Shown in pieces: positions 1-981 of a DNA stretch of 7,092 nt. Source of the stretch: a virus (taxonomy: Duplodnaviria > Heunggongvirae > Uroviricota > Caudoviricetes); the IMG/VR virus record IMGVR_UViG_2534681912_000006; one strand, given 5' to 3'. Below the pieces are notes generated by a model. The model worked only from the letters and a program-made list of their open reading frames with translations, was not told where the DNA came from and did not search any database. Made by a program: the position numbers and the translations under genes. The stretch's first letter is position 1, and every line of letters starts with the position of its first letter.

Positions 1-133
1 CCGGCGTACAGCCAATCTTTGGAGCAATGGAACAAATTGTCGCCCATTGTGAGTCATATTCGCTCTGACTTTCCAGAACCATACGGACTGCCCGTTGACG
101 GACTTCGGGGGAAAAACGAGTATTTTTAGTCAT
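1..133 (-). CDS. IS3-family transposase OrfA, N-terminal 44 codons (partial, continues off the window)
   Basis: Minus-strand ATG at 133..131, preceded by AAGAGG (complement of 142-147). Translation is [44 protein letters not shown], the characteristic N-terminus of IS629/IS3-group OrfA with its helix-turn-helix region. Confidence 0.85.
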
Positions 134-188
134 CCTGTTTACCTCTTTCTCAGGAAGTTTAGTCTCCAGGATTCCCGGGGCGGTTCAA
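1..188 (-). mobile_element. IS3-family insertion sequence (IS629-like), terminal ~188 bp including the left inverted repeat; element continues beyond the window start
   Basis: The reverse complement of 150-188 reads TGAACCGCCCCGGGAATCCTGGAGACT..., which matches the IS629 left terminus as I recall it, with the IS3-family TG...CA end. It is followed by an SD and the orfA start codon. Element boundary placed at 188. Confidence 0.8.
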
Positions 189-258
189 CTCCCCAAAATC
201 CCCTGGCCTGACCGATGCATCGGCCTCAACGTCAAAAGATGCGCTGAGTATCACTGAT

Positions 259-981
259 GTGATGGCCGCGCAGGGCATGACACAGAATCGGGCTGAGATG
301 GGTTTTTCTGCGTTCCTGGGGAAAATGGGCATCAGTATGAATGACAGGGTGCGGGCAACAGAATTACTGGCAGATTATGCACTCAGTCGGTGCGATCGTG
401 TGGCGGCGTTGAGAAAACTTCCGGCAGAAATAAAACCGGTAGTGATGCGCATTATGGCTTCGTACGCTTTTGAGGATTATGCCCGCAGCGCAGCGAGTAA
501 AAAGCAGTGCCCTTGTTGCTATGGGGAAAAATTTATTGAAAGCATAGTTTTTACAAACAAGGTCCAGTATCCGGATGGTAAGCCGCCGGTATGGGCAAAG
601 TGTACGAAAGGTGTGTATCCGTCTTACTGGGAAGAATGGAAAAAAGTCAGGGAGGTGGTAAAAGTTGCCTGTCCGGAGTGTGGCGGAAAGGGTGAGGTTT
701 CCACCGCCTGTAAGGATTGCCGTGGGCGTGGTGTCGCCATTCACCGTGAAGAGTCGGTAAAACGTGGTATGCCTGTTATCAGAGACTGCCAGCGTTGTGG
801 TGGTCGTGGCTATGAAAGACTACCATCAACGGAGGCATTTAATGCTATATGCGAGGTGACAAACCAGATAACACGCGCGTCATGGGAAAAAACAGTTAAG
901 AAATTCTATGATGCGCTGGTGACCCGGTTTGATATTGAAGAAGCATGGGCTGAGCGGCAGTTAAAAAAGGTAACTAGGTAA
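259..981 (+). CDS. Q: Late-gene antitermination protein Q (lambda Q family); native 5' end interrupted by the IS629-like insertion, possibly non-functional
   Basis: 240-codon ORF (GTG 259 / ATG 262). Four CxxC pairs (CPCC, CPEC, CKDC, CQRC) and a C-terminus ...FYDALVTRF...KKVTR resemble lambda Q (...LYDALV...NAVTR, from memory). In-frame translation of 189-258 (SPKSPGLTDASASTSKDALSITDV) still resembles the lambda Q N-terminal region (HSPKSPMMSDSPRATASDSLSGTDV). It sits immediately upstream of a pR'/tR'-like promoter-terminator pair. Confidence 0.85.
   Translation: MMAAQGMTQNRAEMGFSAFLGKMGISMNDRVRATELLADYALSRCDRVAALRKLPAEIKPVVMRIMASYAFEDYARSAASKKQCPCCYGEKFIESIVFTNKVQYPDGKPPVWAKCTKGVYPSYWEEWKKVREVVKVACPECGGKGEVSTACKDCRGRGVAIHREESVKRGMPVIRDCQRCGGRGYERLPSTEAFNAICEVTNQITRASWEKTVKKFYDALVTRFDIEEAWAERQLKKVTR

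Follow-up and report, generated by a model that had tools for sequence, protein, structure and literature searches.

An IS629 element has very probably transposed into codon 10 of the gene for the antiterminator Q in a lambdoid Escherichia coli prophage, leaving Q lost and the late genes switched off in cis. In the stretch of DNA analyzed here, a window of 7,092 nucleotides, the left end of the element directly abuts the remainder of Q. The first 28 bases of the gene, together with its ribosome-binding site and the ATGA translational coupling to rusA, would remain beyond the 1.3-kb element, and the other 794 bases are left without an in-frame start codon before residue 34, such that full-length Q cannot be made.

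The identity of the element was established by comparison with annotated copies of IS629 (synonym IS1203v), a member of the IS3 family. The window begins inside the element, 187 of whose 1310 bp are present. Positions 1-187, minus strand, are identical in 187/187 bases to annotated IS629 copies (E = 2e-92 against many E. coli loci described as 'IS3-like element IS629 family transposase') and correspond to the left end of a reference copy that is complete at 1310 bp (L013, positions 1501-2810). In this reference copy, both ends of the element start with TGAACCGCCCCGGG and 23 of 25 bases match between them, and the flanking 3-bp duplication is CCC. The same kind of terminus, starting with TG and reading TGAACCGCCCCGGG, was found on the minus strand of the window at 163-187, where the left terminal inverted repeat reads TGAACCGCCCCGGGAATCCTGGAGA and has position 187 as its outermost base. 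The first 44 codons of orfA occupy positions 2-133 on the minus strand, start with an ATG at 133, some 55 bases inside the left terminus of the element, and are identical in translation to IS629 orfA; HTH_Tnp_1 matches were obtained on the same partial orfA in two longer sister contigs (L009 and L011). The gene for orfB, the DDE transposase made by programmed -1 frameshifting, and the right inverted repeat were seen only in the reference copy. The original prediction of an IS629-like element whose orfA points away from Q, that is, towards position 1, is fully borne out by these data. Its terminus has to be shifted by one base, as the last base of IS629 is 187 (...GGTTCA; ...CCCGGGGCGGTTCA) and not 188, which is already Q sequence.

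From this base onwards, positions 188-1000 are identical in 813/813 bases to an intact allele encoding a 273-aa 'antitermination protein' (WP_000762915.1), which occurs with the same sequence over 188-1000 in at least 20 complete E. coli genomes. The intact allele reads ATG AAA CTG GAA GAT TTA CCG AAA TAC T/AC TCC CCA AAA TCC CCT, the slash marking the position of the break, its N-terminus translates to MKLEDLPKYYSPKSP, and its ATG overlaps the stop codon of rusA as ATGA. The break follows base 1 of codon 10 in WP_000762915.1, and the 3' portion of Q in the window (188-981, plus strand) begins with the second base of codon 10 and runs to the stop codon, without a start codon or ribosome-binding site. 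An insertion at about codon 10 had been proposed on the basis of the window sequence, and alignment to intact alleles places the break exactly in that codon. The resemblance of 189-258 to the N-terminus of lambda Q that had been noticed at the same time was also found: the translation of 190-258 is SPKSPGLTDASASTSKDALSITD, in which the motif SPKSP matches residues 11-15 of lambda Q exactly. The separation of the remainder of Q from its start codon is equally apparent. The Q frame is open from position 163, the first ATG, GTG or TTG in the list of open reading frames is GTG259, followed by ATG262, and there is no such in-frame codon between 163 and 258. The longest remnant open reading frame with a start codon (259-981, plus strand) begins at GTG259 or ATG262, equivalent to Q residue 34 or 35, and its product would be Q without residues 1-33 or 1-34. 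Pairing with the anti-Shine-Dalgarno sequence amounts to -2.2 kcal/mol at 259/262, compared with -5.8 at the native Q start and -7.4 at the holin gene.

The original prediction had itself named the finding that would speak against it, namely that Q natively begins at 259/262 and that 189-258 is an untranslated leader. While the GenBank entries EHY2693632.1 and EIG43343.1 do give a 239-aa product as complete, we consider this reading scarcely conceivable. The end of IS629 lies exactly 71 bases upstream of GTG259 in 16/16 informative contigs encoding the short product, and the stretch 188-258 (71 bases) is found unchanged within the coding sequence of the intact gene, whose homology to lambda Q begins at residue 1. 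In addition, the intact form is by far the more common one: the 273-aa protein is encoded on at least 1000 contigs versus 34 contigs for the short forms (25 for the 240-aa and nine for the 239-aa remnant). A natural short Q allele was rejected, since the intact gene starts at an ATG located 28 bases before the junction.

The junction was found repeatedly. An identical 43-base sequence spanning the boundary between IS629 and Q is present, besides the window, in 16/16 informative contigs, which are short, stem from five NCBI draft assemblies and from several studies of human gut metagenomes, were produced with different assemblers, reach 52-284 bases into IS629 and are 98.8-100% identical to the window. 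Isolates positive for the junction include GCA_902842915.1, GCA_902843555.1 and GCA_900499165.1. The adjacency of IS629 and Q could in principle stem from a chimera at a repeat boundary, as the window starts inside a multicopy repeat in a manner typical of draft contigs, but there is hardly any chance of this, given that different assemblers joined the same bases in isolates and metagenomes alike and did so with up to 284 bases of the element attached; an assembly chimera was rejected because of the identical junction in 16 independent contigs. The junction is absent from 5,426 complete RefSeq E. coli genomes, and the insertion site, codon 10 of the WP_000762915.1 allele of Q, was not found in the literature searched. 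Four of the contigs sharing the junction (L003, L007, L008 and L016) differ from the window by about 1% and several indels, which may reflect either downstream divergence and recombination since the insertion or a noisy metagenome consensus. In E. coli H730, the 239-aa product (EIG43343.1) is encoded on a 949-kb scaffold. Neither EIG43343.1 nor EHY2693632.1 marks the 239-aa remnant as a pseudogene in GenBank; the product is given there as a hypothetical protein or a complete 'antitermination protein'. Furthermore, several RusA resolvases of 122-124 aa share a 90%-identity cluster with the 273-aa Q protein. The two genes overlap by four bases (ATGA), the RusA and Q proteins should be unrelated, and their co-clustering is probably an artefact of fused gene calls.

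A simple insertion would have duplicated ACT (188-190) as a predicted 3-bp target and would have given a far-side junction in which rusA-Q' is joined to the right end of IS629, with ...CCGAAATACTACT directly followed by TGAACCGCCCCGGGTTTCC. The corresponding pattern, GGAAGATTTACCGAAATAC followed by N{0,8} and TGAACCGCCCCGGG, had no match in collections of metagenome, genome and viral contigs. As a control, the near-side junction was sought there as well and was equally absent from all three, and the negative result for the far side therefore says little. For a 3-bp duplication, a Q'-IS fusion open reading frame of 63 aa is predicted, and a protein database queried with the full frame and with its first 40 residues returned hundreds of other fusions between host genes and IS629 but none starting with MKLEDLPKYY. 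Both of these results would also suit a different course of events, in which the element sits where a deletion or inversion mediated by IS629 ended, the early region and the initial 10 codons of Q no longer lie next to it, and the late region is an orphaned prophage remnant. Deletions adjoining IS629 that leave the element intact are documented (PMC9330008), and a frameshift in nanS-p constitutes a second lesion, as expected of a region in decay. Yet we regard such a rearrangement as unlikely, though not negligibly so, because a 10-codon stub at a contig edge would hardly be called as a gene, because the near-side junction is missing from the same three collections, and because IS629 transposition results in simple insertion far more often than in anything else. 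Moreover, the closest complete relative of 188-7092, in strain SCU-172 (99.0% identical), carries the same block in a lambdoid prophage of full length, next to tRNA-Ser and mtfA. We infer that a simple insertion with a 3-bp duplication took place.

The predicted consequences of the insertion for Q rest on its relationship to the well-studied lambda protein. The intact 273-aa protein matches the Pfam family Antiterm (PF03589, E = 2.2e-54), which is also on record for the 240-aa remnant, and a phmmer comparison with the lambda Q chain 7UBM_Q gives E = 4e-40. In this alignment, residues 1-113 pair with lambda Q 1-113 free of gaps, and residues 182-273 correspond to lambda 116-207; 23 of 44 N-terminal residues are identical, including SPKSP and TDVMAA (manual count on the phmmer alignment), and the CxxC pairs, the zinc-ribbon cysteines, also align. 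The protein shares with lambda Q (PDB 7UBM, 7UBN, 4MO1) the PF03589 domain and the SPKSP and TDVMAA motifs in the torus-forming N-terminus but differs from it in length, 273 versus 207 aa, with about 68 extra, CxxC-rich residues (114-181). Together with NusA, lambda Q residues 1-44 form a torus that constricts the RNA-exit channel and keeps terminator hairpins from forming (PMC9388147). This segment is present in the intact allele; the window has lost residues 1-9 and offers no start codon for residues 10-33. The lambda Q exchange V6A abolishes antitermination while binding to the Q binding element (QBE) and RNA polymerase is kept (PMC9388147), and the same article cites a deletion of residues 1-38 as retaining binding to the QBE and RNA polymerase but losing antitermination (ref 17 in PMC9388147). 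Nearly the same segment is missing from a remnant product without residues 1-33 or 1-34, although the lambda deletion was engineered and assayed in the laboratory, whereas we are dealing with a natural truncation of a homologue by an insertion sequence. As the lambda deletion variant, in the form in which it is cited there, binds but cannot antiterminate, the remnant product is expected to have no activity beyond, at most, DNA binding; extrapolating from lambda Q despite the extra segment 114-181 is reasonable but not proven. A product started at GTG259 or ATG262 would lack most of the N-terminal torus segment and could at best bind the promoter without antitermination. The earlier proposal that late-gene expression and lysis are probably impaired gains backing from the deletion phenotype as cited (PMC9388147), and it is on this basis that we infer the functional loss.

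An alternative that gives the remnant a role of its own holds that the open reading frame is expressed from GTG259 or ATG262, by read-through or from a weak promoter in the insertion sequence, and that its product acts on the QBE as a partly active or dominant-negative Q. The remnant is indeed undecayed, with 100% identity to intact alleles, transcripts reading through from the early operon could cover it, and binding of lambda Q without residues 1-38, as cited, would be in line with a dominant-negative effect. However, a recent insertion explains the perfect identity equally well, there is essentially no Shine-Dalgarno sequence in front of the remnant, and the phenotype reported for the lambda deletion contradicts partial activity. 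Neither the junction nor the complete IS629 yielded an outward promoter in standard scans. A lenient scan returned one sigma-70-like site facing Q, TTGACG-17-GAGTAT with an 8/12 match at 95-123 (plus strand), antisense to the start of orfA. This match is probably due to chance, but it would be the sole candidate for transcription of the Q remnant driven by the insertion sequence. The earlier judgment that an outward promoter is unlikely agrees with the standard scans and is qualified by this single site. Taken together, we consider expression of a remnant with an effect of its own to be quite improbable and retain the transposition of IS629 into Q with loss of its function as the preferred reading.

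The sites on which Q would act are preserved. Just 3' of the Q stop codon, at 987-1087, the arrangement of Q target sites is intact, with the late promoter pR' followed by the sigma-dependent pause element, at which Q loads onto RNA polymerase, and then by the intrinsic terminator tR', which Q must override. On the basis of an alignment with lambda, pR' (987-1014, plus strand) consists of a -35 element TTGATT (987-992), a 16-nt spacer (993-1008) and a -10 element TAAATT (1009-1014); compared with lambda pR' (J02459), the -10 element is identical and the -35 element matches in 5/6 positions. The pause element AACGATGGG (1021-1029, plus strand) is identical to that of lambda in 9/9 bases and has the same distance from the -10 element. 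A terminator scan identified tR' at 1062-1087 (plus strand), with a hairpin at 1062-1081 comprising a 7-bp GC-rich stem and a subsequent T run. While the sequences and relative positions of TAAATT and AACGATGGG and the presence of an intrinsic terminator next to them are as in lambda, the spacer, within which the QBE is expected, differs from that of lambda in sequence and in length (16 versus 17 nt), implying that the DNA specificity is not the same. The terminated pR' transcript would be roughly 65 nt long; lambda 6S RNA is much longer. If Q is lost, transcripts initiated at pR' should halt at tR'.

Downstream of tR', the window contains two plus-strand tRNA genes, one with a CAU anticodon (1125-1200), classified as tRNA-Met by ARAGORN and as tRNA-Ile by RefSeq in a relative, and one for tRNA-Arg (UCU; 1301-1375), nanS-p (2870-4845) and a gene for a DUF826 protein. 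They are accompanied by a gene for a P21-type holin S (5562-5777, plus strand; PF04971, E = 9e-33) and one for a phage lysozyme (6706-7092, plus strand; PF00959, E = 1.9e-15) that is cut by the end of the window; both are expected to depend on Q. The plus-strand late genes, comprising those for the tRNAs, nanS-p, holin and lysozyme along with the structural genes beyond the window, would be off in cis, and the prophage would be locked in. The earlier claim of Q dependence for all downstream genes is expected to apply to the plus-strand late genes but is too broad, as iraM, an anti-adaptor gene at 2289-2624, is located on the minus strand, antisense to the operon, and must have its own promoter. 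Just 3' of iraM and convergent with it, a strong match to the small RNA STnc100 is present within the prophage late region (2074-2263, plus strand; Rfam, 132 bits, E = 8e-30). A 117-aa open reading frame without a Pfam match at 1488-1841 (plus strand), between the tRNA genes and DUF3927, is 108 aa long in most sister contigs. No stx gene is present within the window.

Two segments of the late region deviate from their relatives. In nanS-p, a 1-bp deletion at 3046/3047 (GTCACC-CACCTG versus GTCACCACACCTG in relatives) divides the frame of the NanS-p esterase (653 aa) into two open reading frames, one of 63 aa with DUF1737 and one of 597 aa with SASA/DUF6645. One further contig (L017) has the deletion in common with the window, and split gene calls suggest the same for two others (L003 and L016). 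Since another contig (L002) has the same IS-Q junction and an unsplit nanS-p, the frameshift probably arose later than the insertion of the element. Between the genes for holin and lysozyme, a 297-aa open reading frame with an N-terminal DUF1327/YdfR domain (5779-6672, plus strand) has a counterpart annotated as a truncated pseudogene in SCU-172 and a 268-aa counterpart in contig L015. This segment is only about 94% identical to L015 compared with >99% in the flanks, and on sequence comparison it is a mosaic segment.

As the Q remnant is undecayed, precise excision of IS629 could restore Q, late expression and lytic competence; precise excision of IS629 promoted by IEE is documented (PMC9330008). 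Late expression could also be restored by Q supplied in trans from a co-resident prophage of the same Q specificity. A more elaborate scheme, in which IS629 serves as a reversible lock whose excision restores Q and lysis and the truncated protein acts as an 'anti-Q' that dampens related phages sharing the QBE, appears highly improbable. The event described here is real but ordinary and a kind of prophage decay that is already known. Among the stx2a phages of E. coli O157:H7, copy number and position of IS629 are the main variation within types, and the element interrupts roi, lysozyme and methyltransferase genes (PMC4587872). The insertion in the window resembles other IS629 insertions in E. 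coli prophages in that its 187 bases are identical and a prophage gene is disrupted. It differs from the cases in O157:H7 stx2a phages in its site, codon 10 of Q, and in having been seen only in draft and metagenome contigs.

Outside annotation and the typing of strains, the insertion is of little importance. For annotation it is a pitfall, as the 239/240-aa remnant is public as an ordinary 'antitermination protein' without the segment needed for function. For typing, the exact junction recurs across isolates and gut metagenomes from several studies and is usable as a lineage marker. For the prophage itself, it most likely means that the cargo of the late operon, tRNAs and nanS-p, and the lysis genes are no longer switched on by its own Q.
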